Shown: in pieces, positions 7,867 to 64,000 of the stretch
Position numbering within the stretch: the stretch's first letter is position 1
Layout: each line of letters opens with the position of its first letter
Source of the DNA: an uncultured Ruminococcus sp.
GTDB lineage: Bacteria; Bacillota; Clostridia; Oscillospirales; CAG-272
Length of the DNA stretch: 64,000 bases
NCBI GenBank assembly: GCA_964558485.1
Contig: CAZLED010000001.1
Span: forward strand, 26,491 to 90,490
Direction of reading: 5' to 3'
Notes under the pieces: generated by a model
The model's input: only the letters and a program-made list of their open reading frames with translations
Database searches by the model: none
Told to the model about the DNA's origin: nothing
Position numbers and translations under genes: made by a program

Positions 7867-9333
7867 TCAATCTGCGAAGGATTCCAGCACCGTTTTGTAA
7901 TGCTTGGTGGCTGCGCTTTCCTGGGCCGCTGCTTTGGAGGCAAGGTCGGCGGAGTTGGCGGCGGTCAGGTCACAGAACAGATCGTTGTATTGGCTGTATT
8001 TGTAGGTGCTGGCAAAGCTGATCTTCAGACCATCCATGAGCAGTCCGAACATCTTCTGCGAGTCCTCGTTCCGGAGCAGCTTCTTTTGCATGACGGTCTC
8101 GAATACAGCCGGGTACACGTCATAGTAGCTTTCGATGGCAAGGGCTTCGGTGATCTGCCCGGTGCGATCCATGTCGGCGGTGACCTTGGGAATGCCCAGC
8201 AGACCTGTGCCGCCGGTCACCGTGGTGATGTACCGCTCGTCGGAGGCTTCCCACTTGGGGAACACCAGCAGACCATACTCCGCTTCCATGTCCCGGAAGA
8301 ACTGGTAGGCATCGGTCAGGAAGCCGGAGTAGAACAGACCCTGGTCGTTGGCGAACATCTTGGCAAGGTCGTTTTCCTTGGAGTAGTCGGTGATGAGCCA
8401 GGAGGACGGCGTGTGGGTCAGGGTGACGATGGCTTCCAGGATGGACTGGTTCCGGTCGGACAGCAGGGACAGGGTGAAGGTGCCGTCACCGTTGAAGGTC
8501 ACAGGCTGCACGCCCATGCCAACGGAAAAGGCACCACCGGAGGTACCGTGGGAGGACAGCAGTCCATAGGTGTCCCCATCGTCCCAGGTGCCGTCGCCGT
8601 TTTCATCCACGGATACCGTTTCCACCATCTGCGAGAAGGTGTCGAAGGTCCAGTTGTTCTCGTTCACGTATTCATACGGAGACGTCAGCCCATATTCCGT
8701 GACCATATCCATGTTGCAGAACAGCACGTGGGACAGCATAACGCCGGTGAAGGGGATGTAGTTCATTTGCAGGAAGCACTTGCCGTTCTGGGTCAGGGAC
8801 TCCACAGCCAGCTGGTTCCACCAGGCGCCGGTCATATCGATGTGGGGCACGTCGTAGTAGTTGGCCAGATAGCCGCCCAGTGACAGGGACGACATATCGT
8901 TCACGTGGGCCCACGCCAGATCGTAGGCACCGTCCCCGGCGGTCACAGAGGTTTTGACCAGGCTGGCGGCACTGCCGATGGTGGCGGCGATCTCTACGTT
9001 GAAGTTTTCCTCTACGGTCTGGTTCCGCTTGTAGATGGTATCGTTGATCACGTCTCCGGTCAGCTCGTCCACCACAAATTCCATGGCAGGCAGCTCACCC
9101 AGCTTGGCATACTCTCTGCCGATGATCTGGTAGGTGGCACCCTCGTAATTGGCGGCCGGTAGCAGGTCTGCAGAGCGCTGGACGGCGGTCTCGGTCTCCG
9201 GTGCGGTGGTGTCTGCCACAGTGGTGTCGGACTGGGGCGTGGTCTCGTCTGTGGTACCACCGGAGCAGGCCGTCATAGCGGTCGATACCAGCAGTGCACA
9301 CAGGAGCAGGGAAAATAGCTGTTTCGTTTTCAT
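7867..9333 (-). CDS. Lipoprotein, ABC-type extracellular solute-binding protein family (paralog A)
   Basis: MKTKQLFSLLLCALLVSTAMTAC lipobox, T/E/D-rich linker, then family blocks (INDTIYKRN, GAWWNQ, DENGDGTWDDGD, YGLLVFPK, RNEDS). GAGGAAG RBS before ATG 9331-9333. Confidence 0.8.
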   Translation of the reverse strand: MKTKQLFSLLLCALLVSTAMTACSGGTTDETTPQSDTTVADTTAPETETAVQRSADLLPAANYEGATYQIIGREYAKLGELPAMEFVVDELTGDVINDTIYKRNQTVEENFNVEIAATIGSAASLVKTSVTAGDGAYDLAWAHVNDMSSLSLGGYLANYYDVPHIDMTGAWWNQLAVESLTQNGKCFLQMNYIPFTGVMLSHVLFCNMDMVTEYGLTSPYEYVNENNWTFDTFSQMVETVSVDENGDGTWDDGDTYGLLSSHGTSGGAFSVGMGVQPVTFNGDGTFTLSLLSDRNQSILEAIVTLTHTPSSWLITDYSKENDLAKMFANDQGLFYSGFLTDAYQFFRDMEAEYGLLVFPKWEASDERYITTVTGGTGLLGIPKVTADMDRTGQITEALAIESYYDVYPAVFETVMQKKLLRNEDSQKMFGLLMDGLKISFASTYKYSQYNDLFCDLTAANSADLASKAAAQESAATKHYKTVLESFAD

Positions 9334-9389
9334 GACAAATCTTCCTCGGTTCATGAATTGTTTTTTGTAGTACAATCGTTGCTACCATG

Positions 9390-9418
9390 ATTATAGCACA
9401 TCTGTCTGCGAATTTCAA
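9390..9418 (-). promoter_or_regulatory. Promoter of SBP paralog A
   Basis: Minus strand: TTGAAA (9418-9413), 17 nt spacer, TGc-TATAAT (9395-9390). Confidence 0.55.
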
Positions 9419-9845
9419 GATGATGGCACAAAGATCGTTTGGCTTTTTTCAGAAGCGGCGGTGGGTCCTATATAATAAAAGGTAGGCTTCTCATCTATGC
9501 CAGGTTGGATGGTGGCGGTTTTGCTGCAATCACAAGCCCAAAAGCGAAGACGTATGGCTTTTGGATCGGTTTTCCACCGGGATCGGTGTCGTATAAGGAC
9601 AGCATCCTACCCGATGTCCCGTTTTTCGTCATTCTGTCGTAATCTGCAACCGGATACGGAAAGAAATTCTATGCGCTTCCATGCTGCAAGTTTACAGATT
9701 CATACTGGATTTGATGGCGCATAACGGGTATACTATAAGGGTATTTTTTATACACATATTTATATTTATAGAAACGCTGGAGCCGCTTGACAGAATTTTT
9801 GATTTCTCTCTGAAATATTTTTATGGCTCGGCGTGGAGGAGATCC

Positions 9846-11330
9846 ATGACAAAAAAGCATACCCTGATCGCACTACTCTTAGCGTTCCTGACCATTGCAC
9901 CTACCTTTGCTTCCTGCGCAGGGGACACAAAGGAGACACAGCCTGCCAACGATACTACCGCTGACAAAACCGACACTACCGAAACCACCGATGCGGTGAC
10001 TGCCGATATTCCGGTGCTGGATTTTGGTGGCGCAGACTTTACCTTTGGAGATTCTGACGAAACAGACCACAACGGTGCCGAATGGGCGACCTACGACGTT
10101 TGGGTGGATGGTACCACCGGCGACGCACTGAACGATGCGGTCTACGAACGGAGAATGTATCTGGAAAACACCTACAAGATCAATATGAAGGAAGTCAAGG
10201 GGCATACCCAGGTGATCACGGAACAGGACGTGACCTCCGGTACCGGCGAATTGGATGCCGTCATGACCAATGTACTGGTGTCCTGCAACTTAGCGACCAG
10301 TGGCTACACCCGGAACCTGTATGACGTACCCTATATCGATCTGACCAAATCCTATTGGGACCAAGGCTGTGTAGAAGACCTGGAGCTGCTGGGTGGCGTG
10401 TATTTTGCCAACGGTGACATCACCGTCATGGACGACGACGCCACTTGGGTACTGATGTTTGACAAGGGTCTGTACGAGGACAACGGCTTTGAGAACATTT
10501 ACGAAAAGGTCAAGAACAAGGACTGGTACATGGACGATATGCTGGAAATGATGTCCACCGCTGCCCGGGACGTGAACGGGGACGGCGCTATGCTCTGGAC
10601 CGACGATATTTTCGGCTTCACCACCTCCTACAACTCCTGCCAGGGTCTGTTCTATGCCTCCGGCGAAAAGTTCGTTTACAAGGATGAAAGCGGCAAGCCT
10701 GCTCTGACCACCTCTCTGGAACGGCTGACCAATGTGGTGGAGAAGACCGGGAAGATCATGGCAGACGAGAACCTGACCATTCTGGTGAACACCATTGGTT
10801 CCTATGACGATATGCGTGCTATGTTCTCCGAGGGCAGAGCGCTGTTCTATGGGGAAGTGCTGCAGTGTGTGACCCGTCTGCGGGACAGCGATGCGGACTT
10901 TGGTCTGATCCCGTGGCCTATGTTCGATGAAAACCAGGACGGTTACCACAGCTTTGTACACAAGAGTGCCGGTAAGGGTATCTGTGTCACCGCAGCTGCC
11001 AAGGACGTGGATATGTCCGGTGTCATCATCGAGGCTATGGCTGCCAAGTCGGTAGACACGCTGACCCCGGCCTACTACGACATTGCCATTACCCGGAAGG
11101 CTATGCGGGACGAGGAATCCGTGGAAATGCTGGATATCATCCTGAAGGATCGCCGGTATGACTTGGGTTATATCTACAACTGGGGTGAACTGTACGAGGA
11201 GATCCGTGGGCTGATCGCCTATGGCGAGACCACCGTTGCCTCCACCTGGGAAGCGTACGCCGGTGCCTGTGAAGCCGGTATCAACGAGACCATTGCTGCA
11301 CTGGAAAAGATAGCAGCTACACGGCAGTAA
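9846..11330 (+). CDS. Lipoprotein, solute-binding protein family (paralog B)
   Basis: MTKKHTLIALLLAFLTIAPTFASC lipobox. LNDAVYERR, KSYWDQG, DVNGDGAM, FGLIPWPMFDE, MRDEESVEMLDI. GGAGGAG RBS before ATG 9846. Confidence 0.8.
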   Translation: MTKKHTLIALLLAFLTIAPTFASCAGDTKETQPANDTTADKTDTTETTDAVTADIPVLDFGGADFTFGDSDETDHNGAEWATYDVWVDGTTGDALNDAVYERRMYLENTYKINMKEVKGHTQVITEQDVTSGTGELDAVMTNVLVSCNLATSGYTRNLYDVPYIDLTKSYWDQGCVEDLELLGGVYFANGDITVMDDDATWVLMFDKGLYEDNGFENIYEKVKNKDWYMDDMLEMMSTAARDVNGDGAMLWTDDIFGFTTSYNSCQGLFYASGEKFVYKDESGKPALTTSLERLTNVVEKTGKIMADENLTILVNTIGSYDDMRAMFSEGRALFYGEVLQCVTRLRDSDADFGLIPWPMFDENQDGYHSFVHKSAGKGICVTAAAKDVDMSGVIIEAMAAKSVDTLTPAYYDIAITRKAMRDEESVEMLDIILKDRRYDLGYIYNWGELYEEIRGLIAYGETTVASTWEAYAGACEAGINETIAALEKIAATRQ

Positions 11331-11545
11331 AATGAAAAAGGATCTGTTGCAAGTGAAAAAGTTTTGATCCAACTTTTTCAAAAGTTGGCAGGGGTTGAGG
11401 GGACAGAGTCCCTCATCGACCTCCGCAGAGGTCGAAATACCCAGGACATCCGATAAAATTCCTCTTTTTGCTTCTTTAGCAGTACTGCGTAATGCGCTCC
11501 TCGCTAAAGGAGAAAAAGAAGAGAATAACACTATGATATAAAAAA

Positions 11546-11597
11546 GAGGCTGTTGCATTTTTGGAATTTCTTCCTTCGTGCAACAGCCTCTTTTTTT
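11546..11597. terminator. Bidirectional-looking terminator; copy 2 of the 43-nt hairpin core
   Basis: AAAAA, then gaggctgttgca-(same 21-nt loop)-tgcaacagcctc (12-bp perfect stem), then TTTTTTT. Confidence 0.65.
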
Positions 11598-11758: not shown

Positions 11759-12550
11759 ATGCGGTATATCGTTGACCATGACTTACATATCCATTCCCAG
11801 CTTTCCCTTTGCTCGAACGACCCCGGACAGACACCCCAGGCGATCCTGGACTACGGCGTCCAAAACGGACTGAAGACCCTGTGTCTCACCGACCATATGT
11901 GGGATGCGGCTGTCCCCGGCTGCACCTTTGACTTTTATGTAAAGCAGCCCTACGAACGCATCTGCCAGGCACTGCCACTGCCCCAGCATGACGGGGTCAA
12001 GTTCCTCTTTGGCTGTGAGACCGACCAGGACAAAAACTGCACCGTGGGTGTGTCTCCGGCGCTGGTTGAAAAGCTTGACTTTATCATCATTCCCACCACG
12101 CACCTGCATATGGGCGGCTTCACGCTCCGTGGGGACGAAGGTGTGGAGGAAAGAGCAAGCCTGTGGTGCAGTCGGCTGGACAGCGTGCTGGATATGGATC
12201 TGCCCTTCTACAAGGTGGGTATTGCACACCTGACCTGTAGCCTTATGTACACCGGGCACTATCTGGAGGTGCTGGCTGCCATCCCGGACAGCGAATACCA
12301 TCGTCTGTTCGCCAAGGCTGCCAAGGTAGGTGCCGGGATCGAGCTGAACTTCCCGTCGCTCAGTCTGGACGAGAACAGCCGGGATCTGACCTTGAAGCCC
12401 TACCGGATCGCCAAGGAAGAAGGCTGCAAATTCTATTTTGGCTCCGACGCACACCATCCGAAAGAGCTGGCCGGTGCTATGGCAAACTTCCAAAACATCG
12501 TGGATCTGCTGGGACTGGAGGAGACGGACAAGATCGAATTTTTAAAATAA
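11759..12550 (+). CDS. PHP-domain metal-dependent phosphoesterase
   Basis: DLHIHSQLSLCS, LCLTDHMWD, FGCETD, PTTHLH and GSDAHHP histidine clusters typical of PHP/histidinol-phosphatase-like folds. AAAGGAG RBS. Confidence 0.7.
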   Translation: MRYIVDHDLHIHSQLSLCSNDPGQTPQAILDYGVQNGLKTLCLTDHMWDAAVPGCTFDFYVKQPYERICQALPLPQHDGVKFLFGCETDQDKNCTVGVSPALVEKLDFIIIPTTHLHMGGFTLRGDEGVEERASLWCSRLDSVLDMDLPFYKVGIAHLTCSLMYTGHYLEVLAAIPDSEYHRLFAKAAKVGAGIELNFPSLSLDENSRDLTLKPYRIAKEEGCKFYFGSDAHHPKELAGAMANFQNIVDLLGLEETDKIEFLK

Positions 12551-13013: not shown

Positions 13014-14510
13014 TTACTTTTCCAGATATTCCATAAACTTGGCAATGTTGGTCTCGATGGTACCCTTGTTGGAAGCAACGGTGGATGCCACCTGGTTGTC
13101 GCCGTTGAACAGCTTGCTGTTGATGGTGCTCCGCATACTGCTGTTGTACCAGTTGAACATGATGGCAATGTCTACCGCACGGGTCTGTCGCATGATGTCC
13201 AGCATCTCCACGGAGTCCTCGTTCCGCAGGCCCTTGTGTTCTACAACCGTATTATAGTACAGGGGGATCACCTTTTCCTGGCTGTCGTGTGCCAGAACCT
13301 CGGTGATGGTGGCAGTCTGGTCCAGACAGCTGTTGGTGGTGGGGATGGTCAGGCAGAAGACAGAGGTCACGATGTTGGTGATGTAGTTTTCCTGCTCTTC
13401 GTCTGCCTTGGGGAAGGGCACGATACCAAAGGTGTCTTCCATATCTCGCATGAGCTGGGCCGCCTTGATCTCACCGGTCATGAACAGGGATCTGCCTACG
13501 GTGAACACGTGTACATAGCCGCCTGCATCCACGTCAAAGTCTACGTTGGAGGCCTTCAGGGTGTTGCCGGTCTTGCCGTTCATCAGCACCGCCAGCTTGT
13601 CGATTACGTTGTAGAAATGCTCGTTTTCCAGGGTGAAGGCGATGGTGCCGTCGCTCTGGGTCTGAGCGCAGCGTACACCGGCAGAGAAGTAGAATTTTTC
13701 CGGTCCGTCCTGGTGGGAGGAGATGCCCCAGAGGCAGGTGCCGTCCTTGTTCCACTTGAAGGATTCATCGGTGTTCAGGGTCGCCACCTCGGTGCAGTAT
13801 TCGGTCAGCGCATCCAGCGTCCATTTGCCCTCACGAACCAGGTCATAGGGCTTATCCATGTTCCGTTCTTCCATCATGTTTTCGTTGAAGAACAGGCACC
13901 ACATGGAGTCGTATGCCATCAGGTTGATAGCGCCGGTGGCAAAGTACAGCTTATCCTGCAGCGTGGTGGCCTGGATCACGTCCTGGTCCCACCAGCTTTC
14001 CGACAGCTGCAGCTGGGGAATGTCCATCAGGTTCAATAGATACCCTTCCGTCACCAGTGAAATATCCTGGGAGATGGGCAGGAACATCACGTCATAGTCG
14101 TCGCTGCCGGACATGATGGAGGTCTTGGCCTCGTCGGTCAGCAGCGTCACGGTGTTGGCCGCATCGCATTCGATCTTCTTTTCGATGATCTTGCAGTTGA
14201 GCTTGTCCTCGATGGCACGGTTCCGGTTGTACAGGGCATCGTTCAAGGTCTCCCCGGTCAGCTCGGTGGCGTCCATGTAGATGAACATATTCCAGAGCTG
14301 GTCAAAGTTCAGCATCCGGTATTCGCCACCGGCGTAGTCCACATCGGGATACTGCCAACCGTCGGTCTCGGCTTCGGTGGTAGTTGTGTCGGCGCCTGTG
14401 GTGTCGGTGTTGGATTCGTCCGTGTTGGTGCTGGTTTCTCCGGCGCAGGAGAAGAGCATAGGGGCTGTCAGCATAGCAGATAGCAGCAGGGCAAGGATAC
14501 GTTTTTTCAT
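13014..14510 (-). CDS. Lipoprotein, solute-binding protein family (paralog C)
   Basis: MKKRILALLLSAMLTAPMLFSC lipobox. LNDALYNRN, ESWWDQD, FGIVPFPKADE, RNEDSVEMLDI. AAAGGAG RBS before ATG 14508-14510. Confidence 0.8.
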   Translation of the reverse strand: MKKRILALLLSAMLTAPMLFSCAGETSTNTDESNTDTTGADTTTTEAETDGWQYPDVDYAGGEYRMLNFDQLWNMFIYMDATELTGETLNDALYNRNRAIEDKLNCKIIEKKIECDAANTVTLLTDEAKTSIMSGSDDYDVMFLPISQDISLVTEGYLLNLMDIPQLQLSESWWDQDVIQATTLQDKLYFATGAINLMAYDSMWCLFFNENMMEERNMDKPYDLVREGKWTLDALTEYCTEVATLNTDESFKWNKDGTCLWGISSHQDGPEKFYFSAGVRCAQTQSDGTIAFTLENEHFYNVIDKLAVLMNGKTGNTLKASNVDFDVDAGGYVHVFTVGRSLFMTGEIKAAQLMRDMEDTFGIVPFPKADEEQENYITNIVTSVFCLTIPTTNSCLDQTATITEVLAHDSQEKVIPLYYNTVVEHKGLRNEDSVEMLDIMRQTRAVDIAIMFNWYNSSMRSTINSKLFNGDNQVASTVASNKGTIETNIAKFMEYLEK

Positions 14511-14723: not shown

Positions 14724-18172
<3,449 letters not shown>

Positions 18173-21363: not shown

Positions 21364-21762
21364 ATGGCGTATCAGACCAAACAACGGCACGCGATACTGG
21401 CGTATCTGGCGGCGTCTCCACACACCAGTCACACGGCCAGAGAGCTTATCGATAGCCTGCATATCAGTGAACCCACCGTTTTTCGTACCCTGACCTATCT
21501 GACCGAGGAAGGGCTGCTCAAACGGTTCACCGGTCCCCATGGGGCTGTCTACCAATACATCGGCTGCGGCGGCCACCATATGCACCTGAAATGCAAGGCC
21601 TGCGGCAATCTTGTTCACCTGGAATGCAGCTTTGCTGAGGAGATCCTGCGACATTTCTCCGAGGAGCACCACTTTATGCTGGACGAAGAAGACACCATTT
21701 TCTACGGCTTCTGCGACAACTGCCGCCGCAAGACCGAAGCCGGAAAGGATACGGACCTATGA
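21364..21762 (+). CDS. zur: Fur-family metalloregulator, probably Zur
   Basis: Winged-helix N-terminus. HHMHLKCKACGNLVHLE and FYGFCDNC CxxC pairs. ATGA overlap with the metal-binding lipoprotein gene. Confidence 0.8.
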   Translation: MAYQTKQRHAILAYLAASPHTSHTARELIDSLHISEPTVFRTLTYLTEEGLLKRFTGPHGAVYQYIGCGGHHMHLKCKACGNLVHLECSFAEEILRHFSEEHHFMLDEEDTIFYGFCDNCRRKTEAGKDTDL

Positions 21763-22724
21763 AAAAAACACTGCCCCTGCTTCTGGCGCTGACCTTTCTC
21801 ACCGGCAGTACCACCGGCTGTGCGGTTGACGATGGCAGACCGGAAGCGGATGGACTGACCATCATCACCACCAACTTTTTCCTGTACGATACCGCACGGA
21901 CCCTGGCACGAGAAAACGACAACGTGGTCATGCTGATCTCGCCCGGTGCGGAATCCCACGACTATGAGCTGACCCTGACCGATATGGCGGCGCTGGAGAC
22001 CTGCGATCTGTTCGTCTACGTGGGCGGCGAAGGTGAAGATTGGGTCTACGATGCGCTGGACACCTTTGCGGCAAGTGGCATCACGATCCCCACCTTCTGC
22101 GCCATGGAAGCGGTGGAAGAGAAGGGAACACTGATCCATGCGGCGGAAGAGCATGACCACGATCACGACCACAGCGAACACGCAGATGAGCATTGGGAAG
22201 GCATCGATGACCATGTGTGGCTTTCCATGCCCAATGCCATTGCGATCTACGAAGGACTGTGCGATACGCTCCTGCACACCTATGAGACCTGGTCGCCGGC
22301 AGAAAACGACTGGGCCTACACCGTCACCACCTGGGACGAAAAATACCGGGCGTTGGTGGCAGAGGCGGCCGATCCCTTTCTCCTTGTGGCTGACCGGTTT
22401 CCCTATACCTACCTGACTACGGAATACGGCATCGACTATTTGGCGGCCTTTTCCGGCTGCACCTCCGACACGGAGCCGACCCTGGATGTGGTAAATCGGC
22501 TGATCACAGAGGTGGAGAACCGGCAGGGCAAGACGATCCTTGTGACCGAGCTGTCCGATGGGCAAACGGCGCAGGCCATCTCAAAGCAGGTACCAGGCGT
22601 GACCATCGAAGAGCTGCATTCCTGCCACAATGTGACAAAGGCAGATTTTGATAGTGGTGTGACCTACATCGATCTGCTGGCGCGAAACTACGCCGTTTTG
22701 GAGAAGATACTATGGAAGAAATAA
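21759..22724 (+). CDS. znuA: Metal (zinc-type) ABC transporter substrate-binding lipoprotein, ZnuA/TroA cluster 9
   Basis: Lipobox LTGSTTGC. His/Asp-rich loop HAAEEHDHDHDHSEHADEH, typical of ZnuA. Confidence 0.8.
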   Translation: MKKTLPLLLALTFLTGSTTGCAVDDGRPEADGLTIITTNFFLYDTARTLARENDNVVMLISPGAESHDYELTLTDMAALETCDLFVYVGGEGEDWVYDALDTFAASGITIPTFCAMEAVEEKGTLIHAAEEHDHDHDHSEHADEHWEGIDDHVWLSMPNAIAIYEGLCDTLLHTYETWSPAENDWAYTVTTWDEKYRALVAEAADPFLLVADRFPYTYLTTEYGIDYLAAFSGCTSDTEPTLDVVNRLITEVENRQGKTILVTELSDGQTAQAISKQVPGVTIEELHSCHNVTKADFDSGVTYIDLLARNYAVLEKILWKK

Positions 22725-23596
22725 AACAAGTGTCAAAAGCTGGCACAACAGAAGCGGCACCGGTTTTGGTGCAGGCCAAGGATGTGACCCTGTCCTATGA
22801 CGGCAAGCCTGTGGTTGGAAACGTGAACTTTACCGTGACAAAGGGGATGTACCTGTGTGTGGTAGGCGCCAACGGCAGCGGCAAATCTACCCTGATGCGT
22901 GCCATCACCGGGATGCTTCGTCCCACCACCGGCACCCTGACCGTGACACCCGGCGTGACCATTGGCTATCTGCCCCAGCAGTCGGAGATCCAGCGAGACT
23001 TTCCGGCGTCGGTCTGGGAGGTAGCGCTGTCCGGTTGTCTGGGCAGAGTAAAGAATCGCTTCTGGCCGGGGTTCGGATACGACAAGGAGTCCCGGGCACG
23101 AGCGGAAAAGGCGCTGGATATGCTGGGGATGTCCGACAAAAAGAAGCGTTCCTACAACGAGCTCTCCGGTGGGCAGCAGCAACGGGTATTGCTGGCACGA
23201 GCCCTGTGTGCTTCGGATACGCTGCTATTGTTGGACGAGCCGGTGACCGGGCTGGATCCGGATGCGACCCGGGAGATGTATGCCATGATCCGGCGGCTGA
23301 ACAGTGCGGGCACGGCGATCCTGATGGTGACCCACGACATGGAAGCGGCCCTGGAAGAGTCTTCGCACATTTTGTGCCTGTGCCAGCGCCATGGGGCTCC
23401 GACTGCCCACGGTCACACCAACTTCTTTGGGGAGACAGAACGATACCGGGCTGGTCTGGGTGCCGCACCCGGTGAGGACACGTGCAGCTGCTGTGGGTTG
23501 GCACACGAGCATCGTACCGCAGCGGTGGGGGCAAGAAAGCTCCTGGTGCCGGAACGATTGCAGACTACATACACCGAAAAGGAGAAAAAGCTATGA
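22712..23596 (+). CDS. znuC: Metal ABC transporter ATP-binding protein with ~60-aa Cys/His-containing C-terminal extension
   Basis: GANGSGKST (Walker A), LSGGQQQRVLLARAL (signature), LLLLDEP (Walker B). Tail ...HGHTNFFGE...CSCCGLAHEH... Confidence 0.85.
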   Translation: MEEIKQVSKAGTTEAAPVLVQAKDVTLSYDGKPVVGNVNFTVTKGMYLCVVGANGSGKSTLMRAITGMLRPTTGTLTVTPGVTIGYLPQQSEIQRDFPASVWEVALSGCLGRVKNRFWPGFGYDKESRARAEKALDMLGMSDKKKRSYNELSGGQQQRVLLARALCASDTLLLLDEPVTGLDPDATREMYAMIRRLNSAGTAILMVTHDMEAALEESSHILCLCQRHGAPTAHGHTNFFGETERYRAGLGAAPGEDTCSCCGLAHEHRTAAVGARKLLVPERLQTTYTEKEKKL

Positions 23597-24429
23597 CCAT
23601 ACAATCCATTCTGGCGTCTCCTTTTTTGACAGGCGTCGTGCTGCGTTCCCTGATCGTGGGGGTGCTGGTGTCTCTGTGTGCGGCGCTGCTGGGCGTGAGT
23701 CTGGTGCTGAAGCGGTATTCCATGATCGGTGACGGTCTGTCTCACGTGGGATTTTTTGCCTTAGCTCTGTCTACGGCAGCCGGGGTCAGCGGTGCGTACA
23801 CCATGGAAGCGTCTTTGCCCATCGTGATCTTAGCGGCGGTGCTGATCCTGCGGCTGAGCCAATCGAAGAAGATCAAGGGAGATGCGGCCTGTGCCATCGT
23901 TTCTACAGGAGCGGTGGCCATTGGTACGCTGATCAACAATGTGCTGGGCGTGCGCTCGGCAGACGTGTGCAGCAGCCTGTTTGGTTCGGCTTCGCTTGTG
24001 ACACTGACGGACAAGGATCTGTGGCTCAGTGTTGCCATGTCGGCCCTGACACTGGTGTGGTATGTGCTCTGTGCCCGGCGGATCTTTGCGGTGACCTTTG
24101 ATATGCCCTTTGCCCGGTCGGCTGGGGTCCACACGGAACGGCTGGATATCGTGATGGCGATCCTGACGGGCATCACCATCGTGGTGGGCATGAAGATGAT
24201 GGGGGCCATTATGATCTCCGCTCTGATCCTGTTTCCGCCCATGACTGCCATGCGTGTGACCGGCAGCTTCCGGGCTACGGTGTGGGTGTCTGCCATCGTG
24301 TCGGTGGTGAGCTTTGTGATCGGCTTCGTGCTGGCGTGCCGATTCTCTCTGCAGACCGGTGCCACGGTGGTGACGGTCCAGCTGGTGTTGTTTTTGGTTT
24401 TTGCGCTGGTGGGACGAAAGAAAAGGTAA
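23593..24429 (+). CDS. znuB: Metal ABC transporter permease (ZnuB-like)
   Basis: ATGA overlap with the znuC stop. Polytopic hydrophobic protein: MTIQSILASPFLTGVVLRSLIVGVLVSLC... Confidence 0.8.
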   Translation: MTIQSILASPFLTGVVLRSLIVGVLVSLCAALLGVSLVLKRYSMIGDGLSHVGFFALALSTAAGVSGAYTMEASLPIVILAAVLILRLSQSKKIKGDAACAIVSTGAVAIGTLINNVLGVRSADVCSSLFGSASLVTLTDKDLWLSVAMSALTLVWYVLCARRIFAVTFDMPFARSAGVHTERLDIVMAILTGITIVVGMKMMGAIMISALILFPPMTAMRVTGSFRATVWVSAIVSVVSFVIGFVLACRFSLQTGATVVTVQLVLFLVFALVGRKKR

Positions 24430-24533: not shown

Positions 24534-24562
24534 TTGACAGGCTGTCGGGATTTGTGTATAAT
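24534..24562 (+). promoter_or_regulatory. Promoter of SBP paralog D
   Basis: TTGACA (24534-24539), 17 nt spacer, TATAAT (24557-24562). Confidence 0.6.
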
Positions 24563-24686: not shown

Positions 24687-26168
24687 ATGTCTGCCAAAAA
24701 ACGGATGCTTGCTTTGCTGCTGACGGCACTGCTGCTGTCGTCTGCCTTTGTGTCCTGCGGAGAAACGGAGGTCCAGGAGGAAGAGACAAAGGGTGCGGAT
24801 ACTGTCGCCACCACAGCGGAACCGGAGACCGAGGAGATACGCTATGCAGCGGATATTCCTGCAGGTACTGACTACAACGGAGAGACCTTTACGGTGCTGG
24901 CCTTTCCGCTGGAGACGCTTGTCTGGGGTGACGTGGACTGGAATGCCGAAGAGCTGACCGGGGAAGTGGTCAACGATGCGGTGTACAACCGTACGACCAC
25001 CACGGAGTCCAAGCTCAACGTGGCTATCGAGGTGGTCCACATGGACAGCTACGGCAACGCCAATATGCTCCAGAAGTCTGTGAATGCCCAGGACAATGCC
25101 TATCAGCTTGCCACCAACTCGCTGCAGACCACCTTGACCATGGGACAAAACGGACTGCTGGCGGAGCTGAATGACTATGCCGCACAGGGCACGCTGGCAC
25201 TGACCTCGCCTTGGTGGGACCAGAACTGCCTGAACGACCTGTCCGTGGATCACAAGAACTATATCCTCACCGGCGACATTGGTACCATGTACAAAAAGTC
25301 CATCGGCGCCATCATGTTCAACAAGGCCATCTACAACAACTACAGCCTGGAGGATCCGTACCAGCTGGTGGAAGACGGCAAGTGGACCATCGACAAAATG
25401 GTGGAAATGGGCACCCAGGTTTCGGTGGACACAAACGGCGACGGCGTTATGGATACCGAAGACCAGTTTGGTCTGATCTGCTTCTGCGATATGATGCCGC
25501 TGGCGTTCATTGGCGCCGGTGTACAAATGGCGACCAAGGATGCGGATGACGTTCCCCATCTCAGTATGTATTCCGAAAAGACCGTGTCCGTGATGGAAAA
25601 GCTGGCGACCCTGATGTACAACGAGTCCATCACCTGGAGCTGGTCCAAGGCCGGTGTCACCGAGGAGACCGCTTTTGCCATGTACCAGGCGGATCAGTCC
25701 TTCTTCTACTATGGGGAGCTGCACGCCGTTGCCATCATGCGGGATATGGATTCTCCCTTCGGCGTCCTGCCCATGCCCAAATATGACGAAGCACAGGACA
25801 GCTACTACCACTGCGTCAATCCCAATGTGGCTTCCGTATACGGTATCCCGGTCACCAATGTTGCCTACGACATGACCGGTCACGTGATGGATACCCTGGG
25901 TGCCGAATCCAAAAACGAGCTGACGCCGGCCTACTACAATGTGACGCTGCTGGGCAAGGTCAGCCGGGACAGCGAATCTGTGGTATCGCTGGATATCATC
26001 ATCGGCAGCATCCGGTACGATCTGGGCTATCTGGGCGGTATCGGGATCAGCTCTATGCTGTACACCATGGCAAACGCCTGCAATTCCGACCTGACCTCCC
26101 AGTACGAGGCAAAGGCAAGCTCCTTTGAAAAGGCCCTGGAAAAGTTCGTGCAGGCCTACGTGGATTGA
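24687..26168 (+). CDS. Lipoprotein, solute-binding protein family (paralog D)
   Basis: MSAKKRMLALLLTALLLSSAFVSC lipobox. VNDAVYNR, SPWWDQN, DTNGDGVMDTEDQFG, FGVLPMPKYDE. GGAGG RBS. Confidence 0.8.
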   Translation: MSAKKRMLALLLTALLLSSAFVSCGETEVQEEETKGADTVATTAEPETEEIRYAADIPAGTDYNGETFTVLAFPLETLVWGDVDWNAEELTGEVVNDAVYNRTTTTESKLNVAIEVVHMDSYGNANMLQKSVNAQDNAYQLATNSLQTTLTMGQNGLLAELNDYAAQGTLALTSPWWDQNCLNDLSVDHKNYILTGDIGTMYKKSIGAIMFNKAIYNNYSLEDPYQLVEDGKWTIDKMVEMGTQVSVDTNGDGVMDTEDQFGLICFCDMMPLAFIGAGVQMATKDADDVPHLSMYSEKTVSVMEKLATLMYNESITWSWSKAGVTEETAFAMYQADQSFFYYGELHAVAIMRDMDSPFGVLPMPKYDEAQDSYYHCVNPNVASVYGIPVTNVAYDMTGHVMDTLGAESKNELTPAYYNVTLLGKVSRDSESVVSLDIIIGSIRYDLGYLGGIGISSMLYTMANACNSDLTSQYEAKASSFEKALEKFVQAYVD

Positions 26169-26349: not shown

Positions 26350-27867
26350 ATGTTGACAAGAAAAAGAATGTTCGCGTTGCTGCTGGCGGCGCTGCTGCTG
26401 ACATCTTCCTTTACGGCTTGCGGTGAAGTCGAGGTGGTGGAGACCCAGGATGTGGCCGATACCACAGCTGCTCAGGAGACCGAGGAGGTGGAGCCCTTTG
26501 CCAATGTGGATTTCGGCGGACAGAGCCTGCGCATTTCTTCCTCCATCGATGAGGAGGACTCCACCAATGCCCATCGACTGATCGCCGGTTCCGGAGAGCT
26601 CAATGGCGAGGTGGTCAACGATGCGGTGTACCAGCGGAACCTGACGGTGCAGGAGCTGCTGAACGTACAGCTGGAATTTCTACCGTCGGAATGGACCTAC
26701 GGCAACGGACACACCGAGATCGAAAAGCTGGTGCTGTCCGGGGACGCCGGGTTTGAAGTGGTCATCAACGACCTGATCAACTTAGGCCGTATCGCCCATA
26801 AGGGGTACTTCCACTCCGTTTCCAACAACCAGATCATGGACTTCTCCAAGTCCTATTAGTACGGCGAGGCCATTGCGGATCTGGAGATCGTACCCGGTGC
26901 TGCCTACATGATGTTAGGGGACGTGTTCGCCGACTGCCTGGCTTCTGCCCATGTGCTGTACTACAATAAAGATATCATCAACAATAACTATGCGTCCCCG
27001 GACTATGTGCAGGATATCATCCTGGACGGCAGCTGGACCGTGGACGAAATGATCCGCATCACCGAGGAGACCGCAGTGGACCTGGACGGCGACGGCACCA
27101 TCTCCGAAAAAATGGGAGACCTGGGCGGTTACTCCGTCATTGGCGCCTGGGGACCGATGATCCCGGTGCTCATGGGCTTTGATGTGCAGTTCATGGATGA
27201 GACCGAAACGGGCAAGCTGGCGTATTGCTTCAACAACGAACGCTCCGTGACCATTCTGGAAAAGCTCAACGAGCTGTACTGGGCAAGCTGGAATTACCAG
27301 GACATCACCGACCATTCGGCAACGGGTCTGCTGAATCTCTATGCGGACCAGAAGACGGTGTTCGTGGGCTATCTGCGGCTGGGCGACCTGGAAAAGATGC
27401 GGGACATCGAGTTCCAGGTGGGTCTGGCCTGCTACCCGAAGCTGGATACGGACCAGCAGAAGTATGTTTCGTCTCTGCACGATACCTCTGAGGTCGGTGC
27501 GATCATGGTGACGGCACCGGTGGATCAGATGGACTTTATCTCCACGGTGCTGGAAGTGATGGCAAGAGAAGCCGGCCGCACGATCATTCCGGCATACTAT
27601 GAAGAAGCGCTGAAGATCAAGTACGTGAACGGTACCGGAGACGCTGCCATGATCGACCTGATCCACGATGCGATCACTTCTCCTTTTGCGCTGGCGTACA
27701 ACAATATCCTTGGTGAGGTGCTGCTGGGCAAGTGCTTCCTGACACCTCTGGGCAGCAAGAGAACAGACTTTGCCTCTGCCTATGCGTCTGTCGAAAAAGC
27801 CGCATTGGAAGACCTGGATGAGCTGGTAGAAGCCTTCACCGAAGTGGTGGAAAGACAGGGAAGATAA
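26350..27867 (+). pseudogene. Solute-binding lipoprotein paralog E, interrupted by a single in-frame TAG (26857-26859) at the family-conserved Trp
   Basis: ORFs 26125-26859 and 26908-27867 are in the same frame. The sequence reads ...DFSKSY*YGEAIADLEI... where the other paralogs have KSYWDQG, SPWWDQN and similar. The lipobox (SSFTAC) and the downstream family blocks are intact. Confidence 0.75.
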
Positions 27868-30214: not shown

Positions 30215-31654
30215 ATGCATACCAAACGACTGCTTACGCTGCTGCTGGCGGCACTGCTTCTGACCGCCTGTGCAGGAGAAACCATCGAGACCATCGGTAC
30301 CGAGTCCACGACACCTGTGGAGACCACGCCGGAGACCACCTATATCGATACCCTTGGCAAAAAGGATTTTGGCGGCGCCACCTATACCTATGCCTTTTCC
30401 GGACGCAACAGCACGATCCCCATGCTCGACCCACACGTGGGTGAGCTGACCGGCGAGATCATGAACGATACGCTGTACAACCGGGACAAATGGATCGAAG
30501 AAGAGTACGGTGTATCCATCGAATATTTGGAGGATGGCGACATCCAAAGCAGCATCCGCAATGCGGTACAGGCCGGAGATGCCCTGTGCGATGTGGTGGT
30601 CGGCTCCCTGGCTGACGGCAAATCCGGACTGGGCGCTGTGGTGCAGCAGGGTGTGCTGTATAACCTGTTGGACGTGCCGCACCTGCAGCTGGACAAGGAA
30701 TGGTGGAGTCCGCTGATGTACGAGAATGTACAGTACAACGGCAAGATGTTCTTCACCTCCGGCGACATGGCACCCTTCTCCTACATTGGTCCGGCCTGCG
30801 TCTATATGAACCTGGATCTGGCGCTGAACTACCAGGTGGACGAAAACGAGATCTACGAGCTGGTGTATGACGGCGACTGGACCTTTGACGAGCTGTACAG
30901 CCGGTATAATGGTCTGGACAATGACCTGAACGGGGACGGCAAAATGCACTGCCTGGACGACTTCTACGGCATCGTCACGGAATACAACAACCTGACCTCC
31001 ACGCTGCTTTTGGTGGCAAACGATGTGAAGCTGTGCGAAACGGATGAAAGCGGAAAGCTTGCCATCCATCTGAACGATGAACGCACGGTGTCCGTTATTG
31101 ACAAAATGGCGAACTATTTCCAGAAGATCGAAAACAACGGCGACAACACCCTGCTGTTTGACGAGACCTTCAAGTTCGACCGGGCGCTGTTTGCGGTGCA
31201 TTATGTGGAATCGACCCTGCGCCGGTTCCGGGATATGGACAGCGACTACGTGATCCTGCCCATGCCGAAATACGACACCACCCAGGAAAGCTACGTGTGC
31301 TACATCAATCCGTGGGTACAAGCCTTTGTTTCCGTTCCGTTGGTGGTAGAGGACATCGAAAGAGCCGGGTTCATCACCGAGGTCATGGAATATAAGTCTG
31401 TCGAAATGGTGCGGCCGGCTGTGTATGACGTGACCCTGAAGGGCAAAGCGCTGCGGAACGAGGACAGCCTTGCCATGCTGGACATCGTGTTCGATACCAC
31501 ATATATCGACTTCAACGGCATCTACGAATTCGGCGGCCTGCTGGGTACGGTGAACGGTGCGATCTTCTACGATAGACCCTATGCCTCTGCCTATGCGGCT
31601 GCGGAAGAAAAGGCAAATACGGCGCTGGAAAAGTTCATGGAGATCTTTGCATAA
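30215..31654 (+). CDS. Lipoprotein, solute-binding protein family (paralog F)
   Basis: MHTKRLLTLLLAALLLTAC lipobox. MNDTLYNR, KEWWSPL, DLNGDGKMHCLDDFYG, YVILPMPKYDT, RNEDSLAMLDI. Confidence 0.8.
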   Translation: MHTKRLLTLLLAALLLTACAGETIETIGTESTTPVETTPETTYIDTLGKKDFGGATYTYAFSGRNSTIPMLDPHVGELTGEIMNDTLYNRDKWIEEEYGVSIEYLEDGDIQSSIRNAVQAGDALCDVVVGSLADGKSGLGAVVQQGVLYNLLDVPHLQLDKEWWSPLMYENVQYNGKMFFTSGDMAPFSYIGPACVYMNLDLALNYQVDENEIYELVYDGDWTFDELYSRYNGLDNDLNGDGKMHCLDDFYGIVTEYNNLTSTLLLVANDVKLCETDESGKLAIHLNDERTVSVIDKMANYFQKIENNGDNTLLFDETFKFDRALFAVHYVESTLRRFRDMDSDYVILPMPKYDTTQESYVCYINPWVQAFVSVPLVVEDIERAGFITEVMEYKSVEMVRPAVYDVTLKGKALRNEDSLAMLDIVFDTTYIDFNGIYEFGGLLGTVNGAIFYDRPYASAYAAAEEKANTALEKFMEIFA

Positions 31655-37892: not shown

Positions 37893-37928
37893 GTACAGGA
37901 GAAAACTATCGTGCAAAGGAGACATACC

Positions 37929-41981: not shown

Positions 41982-42010
41982 TTGACAGAATACCAGTTTT
42001 GTGCTATACT
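41982..42010 (+). promoter_or_regulatory. Promoter of SBP paralog G
   Basis: TTGACA (41982-41987), 17 nt spacer, TGc-TATACT (42005-42010). Confidence 0.6.
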
Positions 42011-42046: not shown

Positions 42047-43516
42047 ATGCGTAGAGTTTGTGCGGGACTGCTGGGGATCCTATTGCTGGTTTCTCTGCTT
42101 TCTTCCTGTGGCAATACAGAGGTCGAAGAAACGGTGGCTGCGGACAACACGGCCACGGAGACCCAGGCCGATACCACACCGGTGGAGACGAGCCGTGCCG
42201 ATTACCCGGACGATCTGCCGGAGAAGGATTTTGGCGGACAGGAGTACATCATTTGCAACATCATCACGGGAGACGTAGACAAGGAATATGAGATCCTGTC
42301 GGTGGAGCTGACCGGAGAAGCCTGCAACGATGCGGTGTTCCATCGGAATGTGAAGATCGAAGAACGGTTCAACACCAAGATCGCAGCCCTGATGGAAGCC
42401 GAGCCGGAGTCGGTGCTGAAGCAGTCTGCGCTTTCCGGAGACAGTGCCTTTACGCTGTGCGGCTACGTGAACTTCAAGGCCTATGTACCGGTAGCGGCCG
42501 GCGCCTGCCTGAACTGGAACGACATTCCCTATGTGGATCAGTCCAAGCCCTGGAATAACCAGCTGGCCAACGAGCCTGCCACCATCAACGGCAAGCTGTT
42601 CGCCATCAACAGTGACCTTTCCATTTCCTCGTTGCAATACACCTATGGGATGTTCTTCAACTATGCGCTGGTGGAGGACCAGGGATACACGCCGGCAGAT
42701 CTGTACCAGATGGTCTTTGACGGCGACTGGACCATCGACAAAATGCGGGAAATGACCGAGAACGTGTGGATCGATACCAATGGCGATACCAAGCACGATG
42801 CCAACGATATCCACGGATACGCCGTGCATCCCGGACTCAATACCACGGACGTCTGGTTGGCAGCGCTGGATCTGCCGGTGGCGACCATCCACAACGACGG
42901 TACCTACTCCATCGATTTCTTCTGTGAAAAGACTATTTCTGCACTGGAAAAGTGCATGGCGCTTACCTTTGACGGCGAGGGCACCTTTACCGGTACCGGT
43001 GGCTGGCGTGAGGTCCCTGCCAACTTTGCATCCGGCAAGATCATGATGACCCAGCTGTACTTTGGGGAGACCACCCAGTCTCTGACCGATATGGAGGACA
43101 CCTATGGGATCCTGCCGCTGCCCAAGTACGACAAGGAGCAGCAGGAATATTACACCAATGCCTGGGACCAGTTCTCCGTATTCTCTGTGCCGGTGACCGC
43201 ATCGGATCTGGAATTTGTGGGTGTGATCTTTGACGCATTGTCTGCAGAGACCTGGCGCACCGTATATCCGGCATACTACGACACCGCACTCAAGAGCCGG
43301 TATTCTGCGGACCCGGCGGTGGCAGAGATCGTGGACATCATCATGGCCGGACGGAAATTTGAGTTCACCTTCCAGTTCGGCGATGACCTGCAGCGTCTGC
43401 CGTATTTGTTCCGGGAAATGCTGGCGGCCAAGACCACGGATGTAGCGTCCAAGTACAAGAGCGTGGAAAGCAAAATGAAGGAAGCCATCGAGAAGATGTA
43501 CTCCTATTACGAATAA
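42047..43516 (+). CDS. Lipoprotein, solute-binding protein family (paralog G)
   Basis: MRRVCAGLLGILLLVSLLSSC lipobox. CNDAVFHRN, SKPWNNQ, DTNGDTKHDANDIHG, YGILPLPKYDK. AGGAGG RBS. Confidence 0.8.
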   Translation: MRRVCAGLLGILLLVSLLSSCGNTEVEETVAADNTATETQADTTPVETSRADYPDDLPEKDFGGQEYIICNIITGDVDKEYEILSVELTGEACNDAVFHRNVKIEERFNTKIAALMEAEPESVLKQSALSGDSAFTLCGYVNFKAYVPVAAGACLNWNDIPYVDQSKPWNNQLANEPATINGKLFAINSDLSISSLQYTYGMFFNYALVEDQGYTPADLYQMVFDGDWTIDKMREMTENVWIDTNGDTKHDANDIHGYAVHPGLNTTDVWLAALDLPVATIHNDGTYSIDFFCEKTISALEKCMALTFDGEGTFTGTGGWREVPANFASGKIMMTQLYFGETTQSLTDMEDTYGILPLPKYDKEQQEYYTNAWDQFSVFSVPVTASDLEFVGVIFDALSAETWRTVYPAYYDTALKSRYSADPAVAEIVDIIMAGRKFEFTFQFGDDLQRLPYLFREMLAAKTTDVASKYKSVESKMKEAIEKMYSYYE

Positions 43517-45213: not shown

Positions 45214-46200
45214 TCAGGTTCGACTCCTGTAATTTGTTTCGTCAATAGTCCCATCCGGGGACGAAAGAAAGGTGCGGTCACCGTGGGCCCGGCGGCTTTG
45301 GGGTTCACCGGCTGCGATACGCTGCACCATATTGGGCATACCCAGATAGACGATGTTGCGCACGATCTCGGTCAGTGGCACGTCCGGCAGCAGCTCTACT
45401 GCCTGTCCCAATTTGGCAAGATCCAGACCGGTAGCGGTCACAAAGGCATCTCGTACCGGGGCATTTTGCCTCGGGGCACTGCAGGCACCGTTCTCGGTCA
45501 GCGCCATCTCTCCCCAAAGTGCGTACAGGGGATTGTACCGATCCTTTGCCACGTCTTCGGGCAGGTCGTCCATGGCATCGCAGAGATACAAAAACCGTCC
45601 GGTCCCTACGCCGATGGCACGTGCGATCCGGGAAGCGGTATCCGGCAGACCTATGGCAAACAGCTCTCCCAGCAGTTCCCCAAAGCATTGTGCCATGGTA
45701 TCCGGGGATGCGCAGTTTTCTTTTTCCTTTGCTGTCAGCGCTTGTAGCTGTTGGGCGCAGAACCCGGGCAGTGCGGCGGTCTCCGGCAGCGCTTTTGTGG
45801 CACGGTGCTGCATGGGGATCGTCAATGGAGAAAGCAGCAGGGACGGCACACGGGTCAGCCCTTTTTCGTCCTGCCAGTCGTCCAGCCGTTTGGCTTCGGT
45901 CAGATAAGCTGCCACCGCTGCGGTGTGATCCAGCGCCGGATGTGGGTCTGCGATCAGTCGGGTGTGGATGGGATGCACGGCACAGCGGCATGGGGTAAAA
46001 TGAAAGGGTTCGGTGAGAATGCTGCGTACCAGTGCCAAAAAGGTGAGATCGTAGCTCAGGGTCAGTCGGGACGCTTGTCCGGTGACCCTTCCCATGGCAC
46101 GGCAAAGACCGCAGTAGACCCCACGATACCACCAAAACTCCCGAACACGCAGAGCCGCCGTATCCGGTCGCACATATCCAAACACAGCTGCACCACCCAT
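45214..46200 (-). CDS. Uncharacterised protein (DUF5685-like by memory of the FGYVRP...YCGLC N-terminus)
   Basis: (M)[36 protein letters not shown]. The start is ambiguous: ATG 46198-46200 or GTG 46183-46185. Stop lies 2 nt before the J-domain start. Confidence 0.65.
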
Positions 46201-46294
46201 CCTTTTGTCGATGGTATTATTGTACAGCCTTTGCCAGAGCAATACAAGGTGTAATTTGTGAATTTCAGGTTAAGAAACAAGAAGAGCGGCAAAA

Positions 46295-63002: not shown

Positions 63003-63113
63003 GTGGGAAGATACATGGGAAGAACGGTACGGTGGAAATGCGGCGGTTTTTGGTGAAGCTGCACAAAAAAGACTTTCTGATTTGTTTTGTATGCTGAAAT
63101 TGCCGAAGAACGC

Positions 63114-63142
63114 TTGCATTGGTGTGCGCTGTGTGCTATAAT
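63114..63142 (+). promoter_or_regulatory. Promoter of SBP paralog H
   Basis: TTGCAT (63114-63119), 17 nt spacer, TGc-TATAAT (63137-63142). Confidence 0.55.
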
Positions 63143-63211
63143 AGGAACGTAGATATGAACGAGTGGATACCATCGGAACGATGAATGAAAACGATACAGG
63201 GAGGCTATACT

Positions 63212-64000
63212 ATGCGGAAGATCGCTTGGCTGCTGGTACTTTTGACAGTGGGCTCTACGTTGGCCGGCTGCGGTGCTGTGGAAGAAACAATAACAGAAAC
63301 AACGGGAAAGACGGAAACAGAATCGACTGTGGATACGGAACCGGAGATATCCGACGATCTGCCCGACATGGACTACGGCGGCGCCGACTTCCGGATCTAC
63401 ACAAGACAGTGCTGTGAGAGCCACAAGAACGGCGTCTATATGCCGGAGCAGACCGGGGACGTGATCTCCGATGCAGTCTACGAACGGAACCTTGCCATCG
63501 AAGAACGCTTCAATATAACCTTCACCGAGCCCTTCTTGGCACCCGATGCCGAGGCTACGGACCTGAACAATGCGGTACAGGCCGGCGACGATATGTGCGA
63601 GCTGGCGGTTTGGCACTACAAGCACCTGGGCGACTCTGCCGCTGCCGGGTACCTTGCCGACATTTCCCAGGCCGGCTACATTGGTTTTGACAAGCCCTGG
63701 TGGTATCAAAAGGTAAACGATGCCTATTCCGTAGGTGGTCACGCCTATGTGGTGGTGGGTATGTATGACCTGGACAACTACTTAGACAATGTGTGCGTGT
63801 ACTTTAATAAGGATATGCTCATCGACCTGACCGGGGACGACGACCTGTACTCCGTGGTCAAGGAAGGCAAATGGACCGTTGATAAAATGGAAGAGATCGC
63901 CACGCTGGCAACGGTGGACCTGGACGGTGACGGCACCATGGATCCCACCAAGGACCAGTTCGGCTACGGGCAGGCGTCCGGGTATGGCTTCATCTATCAG
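63212..64000 (+). CDS. Lipoprotein, solute-binding protein family (paralog H), N-terminal 263 codons; continues past window end
   Basis: Own translation: MRKIAWLLVLLTVGSTLAGC lipobox, T/E-rich linker, ISDAVYERN, KPWWYQK, DLDGDGTMDPTKDQFG. Open to nt 64000, so absent from the ORF track. GGGAGG RBS. Confidence 0.8.
   Translation, partial: MRKIAWLLVLLTVGSTLAGCGAVEETITETTGKTETESTVDTEPEISDDLPDMDYGGADFRIYTRQCCESHKNGVYMPEQTGDVISDAVYERNLAIEERFNITFTEPFLAPDAEATDLNNAVQAGDDMCELAVWHYKHLGDSAAAGYLADISQAGYIGFDKPWWYQKVNDAYSVGGHAYVVVGMYDLDNYLDNVCVYFNKDMLIDLTGDDDLYSVVKEGKWTVDKMEEIATLATVDLDGDGTMDPTKDQFGYGQASGYGFIYQ

Follow-up and report, generated by a model that had tools for sequence, protein, structure and literature searches.

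Carbohydrate importers of the CUT1 family (TC 3.A.1.1) of ATP-binding cassette (ABC) transporters include the raf/msm systems (RafE-RafFG and MsmEFGK, with RafR/MsmR), AbnE and the TMBP of Thermococcus. In Firmicutes CUT1 systems it is normal for a shared ATPase, MsmX, to be unlinked (PMC5730181). The translocator Cbc works with orphan solute-binding proteins (SBPs) in trans, namely CbcX, CaiX and BetX (Chen 2010; Thomas 2010 'Homes for the orphans', both as cited in PMC12838199). Use of permeases in trans has been documented or proposed for the orphan LT-SBPs of Bifidobacterium (PMC8110962), and the cellodextrin transporter of Anaerocellum bescii has two SBPs (PMC12838199). In the Bug/TctC family of Bordetella and Cupriavidus, 76 orphan SBP genes are found in B. 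pertussis against two tctAB sets (PMC5812351). Here a 64-kb window of DNA from an uncultured Ruminococcus sp. (contig CAZLED010000001.1, positions 26,491 to 90,490, assembly GCA_964558485.1) is analysed. It encodes eight paralogous SBP-like lipoproteins, none of which has a permease gene beside it, and the family to which they belong is compared with these systems.

The family has the same two-lobe fold and lipoprotein anchor as the CUT1 binding proteins. AraC-family regulators and cytoplasmic glycosidases are common to both, and AbnE shares the DxNGDG loop and the hinge motif. In contrast to the CUT1 systems, the family has no permease pair at any of about 150 genes, its members are about 490–500 aa in length rather than about 400–430 aa, they fall below the SBP_bac_1 and SBP_bac_8 thresholds, and there are many copies per genome. 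As in the orphan-SBP systems, the SBP genes stand apart, would outnumber the permeases, and have specificity diversified at the level of the SBP. Those systems have 2–5 SBPs per transporter, one of which is usually in the operon, whereas in this family none of 139 genes is linked and at least 13–18 copies are present per genome. The likeness to Bug/TctC is one of organisation only and not of homology: both are massive expansions of orphan SBPs scattered beside catabolic genes, yet Bug/TctC is another SBP family that serves a secondary tripartite tricarboxylate transporter (TTT) in a Gram-negative periplasm, with carboxylate ligands. SusD proteins, from the polysaccharide utilization loci of Bacteroidota, are likewise numerous paralogous surface lipoproteins encoded beside glycoside hydrolases, capturing glycans ahead of a transporter. 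They differ in being all-helical and TPR-like, in being located at the outer membrane, and in always being paired with a SusC TonB-dependent transporter.

The original prediction had raised the possibility of a new organisational principle. This was overstated, as orphan SBPs with permeases in trans have already been described (PMC8110962; PMC5812351; also Chen 2010 and Thomas 2010, as cited in PMC12838199), and the explanation that is most likely for this family extends established biology. It is the scale that is unusual, since the known principle is extended to a whole family that is unlinked and has at least 13–18 copies per genome. The proteins are new within a known fold class. What is new in the arrangement is the family-wide loss of permease linkage, the copies that are individually promoted or paired with AraC, and the gain and loss of single cassettes. 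No description of this SBP family was found in searches of the literature.

The eight lipoprotein genes, each encoding about 480–500 aa, translate to one family as had been proposed. A family hidden Markov model (HMM) recovers these eight genes in the window and none besides, as nine open reading frame (ORF) fragments since paralog 5 is split. Paralog 1 (7867..9333, minus strand; 488 aa; lipobox MTAC) matches the model at E=1e-143 and has an ortholog with 94% identity in the closest metagenome-assembled genome (MAG; locus L006). Paralog 2 (9846..11330, plus strand; 494 aa; FASC) and paralog 4 (24687..26168, plus strand; 493 aa; FVSC) were identified by translation and by the family HMM, as were paralog 6 (30215..31654, plus strand; 479 aa; LTAC) and paralog 7 (42047..43516, plus strand; 489 aa; LSSC). 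Paralog 3 (13014..14510, minus strand; 498 aa; LFSC) is the member for which a structure was modelled. Paralog 8 (63212..64000, plus strand; LAGC) is clipped by the end of the window, and its N-terminal 262 aa match the family HMM at E=4e-52.

Paralog 5 (26350..27867, plus strand; FTAC) is interrupted by an in-frame TAG at 26857–26859. A single change, TGG to TAG, has replaced the first of the two Trp residues in WW[DN]Q, the most conserved tryptophan, and the two halves each match the family HMM (1e-27 and 2e-39). As the rest of the frame is intact, the copy may be a very recent pseudogene, or the stop may be due to a sequencing error or to polymorphism between strains.

All eight N-termini have a basic start rich in M-K/R, a hydrophobic stretch, a lipobox of the form [LVFM][TASV][ASG]C, and then a T/E/D-rich segment, so that the lipoboxes and the Thr/Glu/Asp-rich linkers reported earlier can be seen in every translation. 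The recurring motif blocks are likewise borne out, being nearly invariant in a 44-sequence alignment of the family: N90, D91, A92 and R96; W173, W174 and D175; G362, P365, P367 and K368; and L428, R429, N430, S433, M436, L437 and I439. Pairwise identity between the window paralogs is 23–34%, which suggests that they are old duplicates rather than recent tandem copies.

No family-level match to the window paralogs was found in Pfam or NCBIfam. None of the paralogs reaches the gathering score of SBP_bac_1 (PF01547) or SBP_bac_8 (PF13416). Paralog 1 alone has a sub-threshold match to SBP_bac_1 (17.6 bits, where 26 are required), and the others have none. Precomputed PF01547 or PF13416 matches are on record for some homologs elsewhere. 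The likeness to LplA-type proteins that had been suggested did not hold, as no paralog matched DUF3502 even with E allowed up to 1, and the class of large LplA/DUF3502-type SBPs is therefore rejected. A profile of the paralogs weakly matches the arabino-oligosaccharide SBP AbnE (6rjy) at E=8e-4, over the DxNGDG loop and the hinge motif. The AlphaFold2 model of paralog 3 has a pLDDT of 89.1 and a pTM of 0.84, and its residues 1–48 are disordered, as would be expected of a signal peptide and tether. In a Foldseek search of the PDB with this model, ranks 1–22 of the 50 matches listed, and most of the others, are CUT1 sugar SBPs. These include TMBP 1eu8, Lmo0181 5f7v, RafE 2hq0, a sophoro-oligosaccharide binding protein, GltA 7vfr and UgpB 4mfi (E 1e-15 to 1e-12, TMt up to 0.72, identity 10–15%).

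The Foldseek matches, the model and the weak AbnE profile match together place the family among the sugar SBPs despite the silence of Pfam. The periplasmic-binding-protein fold expected by the original prediction is thus present in the model, and the family is predicted to be a divergent, unmodelled subfamily of CUT1-type (MalE/RafE-like, cluster D) oligosaccharide-binding lipoproteins with the type II periplasmic-binding-protein (PBP) fold. This fold, which is not the all-helical TPR-like one, and the absence of a SusC-like gene from the window led to rejection of the SusD-like class. A phmmer search of the PDB with paralog 3 returned only matches to designed propellers, which are spurious. 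Comparison of the family profile with an approximate sequence of E. coli MalE by hhalign gave no signal by which the conserved motifs could be placed on known sugar-binding or docking residues.

The family extends well beyond the window. When one genome of each GTDB species was scanned, at least 578 relatives were found, all in MAGs of uncultured Clostridia, Oscillospiraceae, 'Ruminococcus sp.' or Ca. Flemingibacterium, from guts, rumen and digesters. Partial sampling of three MAGs gave at least 18, at least 15 and at least 13 copies per genome. A profile search of 1.84 billion representatives returned 6,324 clusters (50% identity) at E<=1e-30, a set that reaches as far as distant operon-linked relatives (a Butyrivibrio SBP at 1e-38), so that the orphan clade is smaller than this number. 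Gene neighbourhoods were studied in 84 loci, 1.23 Mb in total, from 35 MAGs, in which the family HMM identified 139 non-redundant family genes. The whole sequence set used for tblastn amounts to 1.41 Mb from the same number of MAGs, with about 150 family genes.

Absence of linkage to a permease holds in the window and among the relatives, as the original prediction had proposed for the former. None of the eight window paralogs adjoins a permease gene, and none of the 139 family genes in the sampled loci has a CUT1 permease pair beside it. By the Pfam map, too, the window encodes no ABC membrane protein or ATPase other than those of a znu-type system, which is unrelated to the SBP family. This system is located at 21759..24429 and consists of znuA (21759–22724, plus strand; Pfam ZnuA 4e-44), znuC (22712–23596, plus strand; ABC_tran 7e-29) and znuB (23482–24429, plus strand; ABC-3 2e-44). 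The other transporters encoded in the window are a phosphotransferase system (PTS) EIICB/EIIA, an SNF symporter and an ECF S component. Permease genes just beyond the ends of this stretch had been named as evidence that would count against the prediction. On the left side, the adjacent 21 kb in the closest MAG contain no permease gene, and two more paralogs are found there among two GH36 genes, one GH127 gene and one GH35/42 gene.

A regular expression for the EAA-x-DG permease loop matched no ORF in the sampled loci; there is no positive control for this expression within the sample, and it was therefore backed up by Pfam and tblastn. Among 69 medium-sized ORFs with at least three predicted transmembrane segments, Pfam identified only four BPD_transp_1 proteins, none of which is part of a CUT1 pair. 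Two of these are of the Opp type and directly follow a family gene in locus L058, however they are not its partners, since the operon has an SBP_bac_5 protein of its own. The BPD_transp_1 protein of locus L059 was also rejected as a partner, as was a further one near a family gene in locus L092; both belong to NMT1/Ssu-type systems. In locus L026 a lone BPD_transp_1 permease gene is followed by an ATPase gene and is probably of the Pst type, judging from gene order only. The 31 larger membrane ORFs are assigned to MatE, MFS_1, CitMHS, SSF, PTS and other families with none enriched, and there is no recurrent family of membrane partners across the 84 loci. Two genuine Clostridial CUT1 permeases gave no tblastn match in the 1.41 Mb. 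A search for a permease of the lineage, in which a Butyrivibrio CUT1 permease was compared with a database of 5.8 billion proteins, returned only Lachnospiraceae proteins of 70–99% identity. The finding of zero CUT1 pairs in 1.41 Mb, in a sample centred on the family, argues for few such pairs per genome.

An NMT1/Ssu-type ABC operon (SBP, one permease and ATPase) is found near a family member in two MAGs (L092 18568–21875 and L059 3814–6285). In the former it is directly downstream, on the same strand, of a divergent family-like gene that is clipped in view (HMM E=4e-16). Although this is the only ABC system met twice near the family, its proximity is probably a coincidence.

Distant relatives of the family are found in canonical operons. 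On plasmid pNP243 of Butyrivibrio fibrisolvens (WAA20_RS20525-20500) the gene order is YIP1, DUF5696, two CUT1 permeases and two SBPs. The first of these SBPs, encoded directly after the permease genes and followed by the second, is a 501-aa lipoprotein that resembles the family in its T/D-rich linker and its family-HMM match (1e-38). It differs in having only 22–25% identity to the family and in being part of a canonical operon with permeases. A similar locus with GH53 is present in a Roseburia MAG (L096), and the order in Lachnospiraceae is NHL, YIP1, DUF5696, permease, permease and SBP. DUF5696 also adjoins the ortholog of paralog 3 (L001–L004, 11556–13370), in addition to its place in the canonical operons (L095 1153–3672 and L096 4447–7011). 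It may work together with the SBPs of this lineage.

The genes beside the family members bear on the fate of the ligand. An AraC-family regulator (cupin and HTH_18, about 290 aa) adjoins 37 of the 139 members, being divergent and upstream in 32 of these cases. Neither the window nor its closest relatives encode an AraC-type regulator, in keeping with the earlier observation that the window has no regulator of the usual sugar type. In the relatives the neighbours include GH36, GH127, GH106, GH116, GH35, a heparinase-like protein, a PTE-family hydrolase and GFO/IDH/MocA oxidoreductases. By a crude test, an N-terminal hydrophobic segment is present in 23 of 106 large neighbours as against 114 of 125 family ORFs, and the neighbouring glycosidases look mostly cytoplasmic. 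Glycosidases that lack signal peptides depend on import of their substrates. Cytoplasmic exo-glycosidases and cytoplasmic AraC sensors beside an extracytoplasmic SBP therefore indicate that the ligand is imported. In view of the known association of the SBP fold with ABC translocators and the distant relative in a permease operon, ABC import in trans is the most economical route.

It is on balance likely that individually regulated SBPs dock on a few shared permeases that are encoded in trans. In such an arrangement the lipobox Cys would anchor each SBP to the outer face of the cytoplasmic membrane and a disordered T/E/D-rich tether of about 25–35 residues would hold it off the membrane, with the two alpha/beta lobes presumed to close round a sugar. 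The binding-protein genes would have split from the permease genes and then multiplied to at least 13–18 per genome in this Oscillospiraceae-like lineage. Each copy would be a separate small unit, having either a promoter-like site of its own (four of eight in the window) or, in the relatives, often a divergent AraC-type regulator, and being usually encoded beside cytoplasmic exo-glycosidases. The permease pairs on which loaded SBPs dock, of the MalFG type and one or a few in number, would be located elsewhere and driven by a shared ATPase of the MsmK/MsmX type, and the neighbouring exo-glycosidases would hydrolyse the imported oligosaccharides. The sugar ligands, the docking in trans and the number of permeases are what we infer in this scheme.

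Several points weigh against docking on shared permeases. No candidate for the shared permease or for an MsmK-type ATPase was identified in the sampled MAG loci, and both the partner in trans, in its entirety, and the sugar ligand of the paralogs are inferred. The loci were sampled around family genes rather than at random across the genomes, and the MAGs are incomplete. In addition, 23–34% identity between paralogs is low for proteins that would dock on one common permease surface, although the near-invariant motif blocks could form such a surface. Fragmentation of the MAGs might also be thought to have removed the permease genes, since all of the relatives are MAGs and many of their contigs are short. 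However, the window is contiguous over 64 kb, several loci lie on contigs of 100–347 kb with full 10-kb flanks, and in the canonical operons (L095 and L096) the permease genes directly adjoin the SBP genes. An artefact of assembly or binning is therefore a very remote explanation. A cognate permease pair for each paralog, encoded far away, would be in line with the unlinked ATPase that is normal for Firmicutes CUT1 systems (PMC5730181). If pairs were equally numerous and randomly placed, some would be expected to show up in the sample, and the 1.41 Mb from 35 MAGs with about 150 family genes contain none. One-to-one pairing is for this reason considered unlikely.

The original prediction had offered two explanations, a large SBP repertoire served by a few distant permeases or stand-alone capture of glycans at the surface in the manner of SusD, with the glycans held there and not handed over to an ABC transporter. 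Surface capture is in keeping with the lack of a permease of any class linked to the 139 family genes, and with a dockerin-bearing surface protein encoded in the window, which suggests that extracellular assemblies are built. It is also an unlikely explanation, because the fold is that of transport SBPs and not of SusD, the neighbouring glycosidases are cytoplasmic, exo-acting enzymes in need of imported substrates, the AraC-type neighbours sense ligands inside the cell, and a distant relative is part of a permease operon. A tether of about 30 residues beneath a Gram-positive wall would furthermore seem badly placed for the capture of polymers. The evidence leans towards the first of the two explanations, on the strength of the cytoplasmic glycosidases, the AraC neighbours and the operon relative, and there is no positive evidence for the second.

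SBP folds are also used in sensing, as is presumably the case for CuaD of Ruminiclostridium cellulolyticum. Extracytoplasmic sensors or co-receptors, comparable to the SBPs of three-component sugar-sensing systems or to those coupled to chemoreceptors, would pass the signal of a bound ligand to a membrane kinase or chemoreceptor and take no part in transport. Such a role would fit the orphan status of the genes. Only one HATPase_c ORF is present among the 69 membrane ORFs (from about 100 near family genes), the regulator that recurs, AraC, is cytoplasmic and of the one-component type, and it is implausible that a genome would encode dozens of sensors and no kinases to partner them. A sensory role is therefore quite improbable, and the three-component sensor class was rejected since a sensor kinase and response regulator do not recur as adjacent neighbours. 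Slimmer still is the chance that the SBPs hand their ligands to a membrane protein outside the ABC class, such as a secondary carrier of the DMT/EamA or another type, in the manner of TRAP and TTT systems. An operon of MAG RGIG4741 that encodes AraC, SBP, a GH42-like protein and an EamA-like membrane protein of 289 aa would suit such a partner. However, no membrane family is enriched, with EamA at about 2 of 69, MFS_1 at 3 of 31 and the others in random assortment, and we know of no cluster-D SBP that serves a secondary carrier. More broadly, the family may have left ABC transport altogether, its individually regulated SBP-fold lipoproteins serving in glycan retention at the surface or as receptors for a hitherto unrecognised non-ABC membrane partner. 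The zero linked permeases for about 150 genes and the zero CUT1 permeases in 1.41 Mb are compatible with such an exit, which is considered unlikely.

If many SBPs feed a few shared permeases, the rule by which glycan loci are recognised as clusters of regulator, transporter and glycosidase genes misses such loci in this lineage, which is one of abundant, uncultured gut and rumen Clostridia. The range of substrates would then depend on a layer of SBP genes that is modular, costs little and is quickly gained or lost. The family would also be a test system for how one permease surface accepts dozens of SBPs that are about 30% identical. Should a permease be lacking altogether, the SBP fold would have been put to a new use. 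In either case a dedicated family model would improve the annotation of many metagenomes.

The prediction that most of the paralogs have a near-consensus promoter of their own was correct for half of them. A promoter-like site of at least 10/12 is directly upstream of paralogs 1 (9418–9390, 11/12 with TG), 2 (9448–9476, 10/12), 4 (24534–24562, a 12/12 consensus) and 7 (41982–42010, 11/12 with TG). None of this quality was found directly upstream of paralogs 5, 6 and 8. The best site for paralog 3 is just 9/12, and this gene, 213 nt downstream of a GH2 gene on the same strand, may be co-transcribed with it. Only 36 nt separate the ATG of paralog 6 from the end of a strong terminator-like hairpin upstream (30153–30179; 11 pairs, 7 of them G-C, then a run of T), and this interval has no promoter-like site. 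Paralog 6 may be expressed by read-through or from a promoter that overlaps the hairpin.

Single SBP genes behave as cassettes that are gained and lost. The closest MAG (L006) has about 90% nucleotide identity and is collinear with window positions 1–24448, on both sides of a segment of about 2.07 kb (9530–11595) that comprises the promoter, gene and inverted repeat of paralog 2. This segment is absent from that MAG (L006 13212–13220) and present in another close one (L007 13560–15256). A perfect 18-nt inverted repeat lies 3' of paralog 2 (11540–11596), and no direct repeat was found to flank the segment. In the same closest MAG, window positions 2700–5795 (3.1 kb) are swapped for about 80 bp. 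This region encodes a small helix-turn-helix gene and the dockerin-bearing protein, a secreted protein of 885 aa with M23-like, SH3_3, Listeria-Bacteroides repeat and type I dockerin features. Judged from its sequence, the type I dockerin implies a cohesin-bearing scaffold somewhere in the organism.

Between the window paralogs lie housekeeping genes (EF-G-like, pheA, iscS/nifU and a glycyl-radical enzyme) and genes for enzymes related to glycans. The GH2 enzyme and the esterase that had been recognised earlier are both supported by Pfam. The former is a beta-galactosidase-like protein encoded upstream of paralog 3 (14724..17816, minus strand; Glyco_hydro_2_C 1e-97, Bgal_small_N and Glyco_hydro_2_N). 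Its N-terminus is MPFSIPDYH and it has no signal peptide. The latter is a BD-FAE/alpha-beta-hydrolase esterase (40029–40865, plus strand; BD-FAE 6e-21). Of the two PHP phosphoesterases proposed, that between paralogs 2 and 3 (11759..12550, plus strand) passes the Pfam cutoff with 27.4 bits against 26.4, whereas that between the esterase and paralog 7 (40893–41786, plus strand) is below threshold at E=0.015 and can only be called PHP-like. Small metal-dependent hydrolases recur beside the family SBPs, the PHP type twice in the window and the PTE family once in a relative, where the gene (L088 7044–7940) begins 11 nt after the SBP gene.

Upstream of the esterase gene, and likewise preceding paralog 7, is the gene for a 647-aa protein that lacks a signal peptide (37926..39869, plus strand). 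It has no Pfam match. Its AlphaFold2 model (pLDDT 93.1) has three domains, and Foldseek aligns it with GH42, GH164 and related enzymes at E 1e-18 and 10–12% identity. Residues C108, C151, C153 and H156 are invariant and, we presume, recall the zinc site of GH42. On the basis of the model it is probably a member of an undescribed glycoside hydrolase family. A homolog in MAG RGIG4741 (L092 10001–11902) is encoded directly after a family SBP, within the tight unit containing the AraC and EamA-like genes.

A DUF5685 protein (45214–46242, minus strand) is encoded in the window, followed by a J-domain DnaJ-like protein (44600–45211, minus strand). A J-domain protein also adjoins the Butyrivibrio SBP operon (L095 9637–10710). 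This recurrence is likely to be unrelated to the SBP family.

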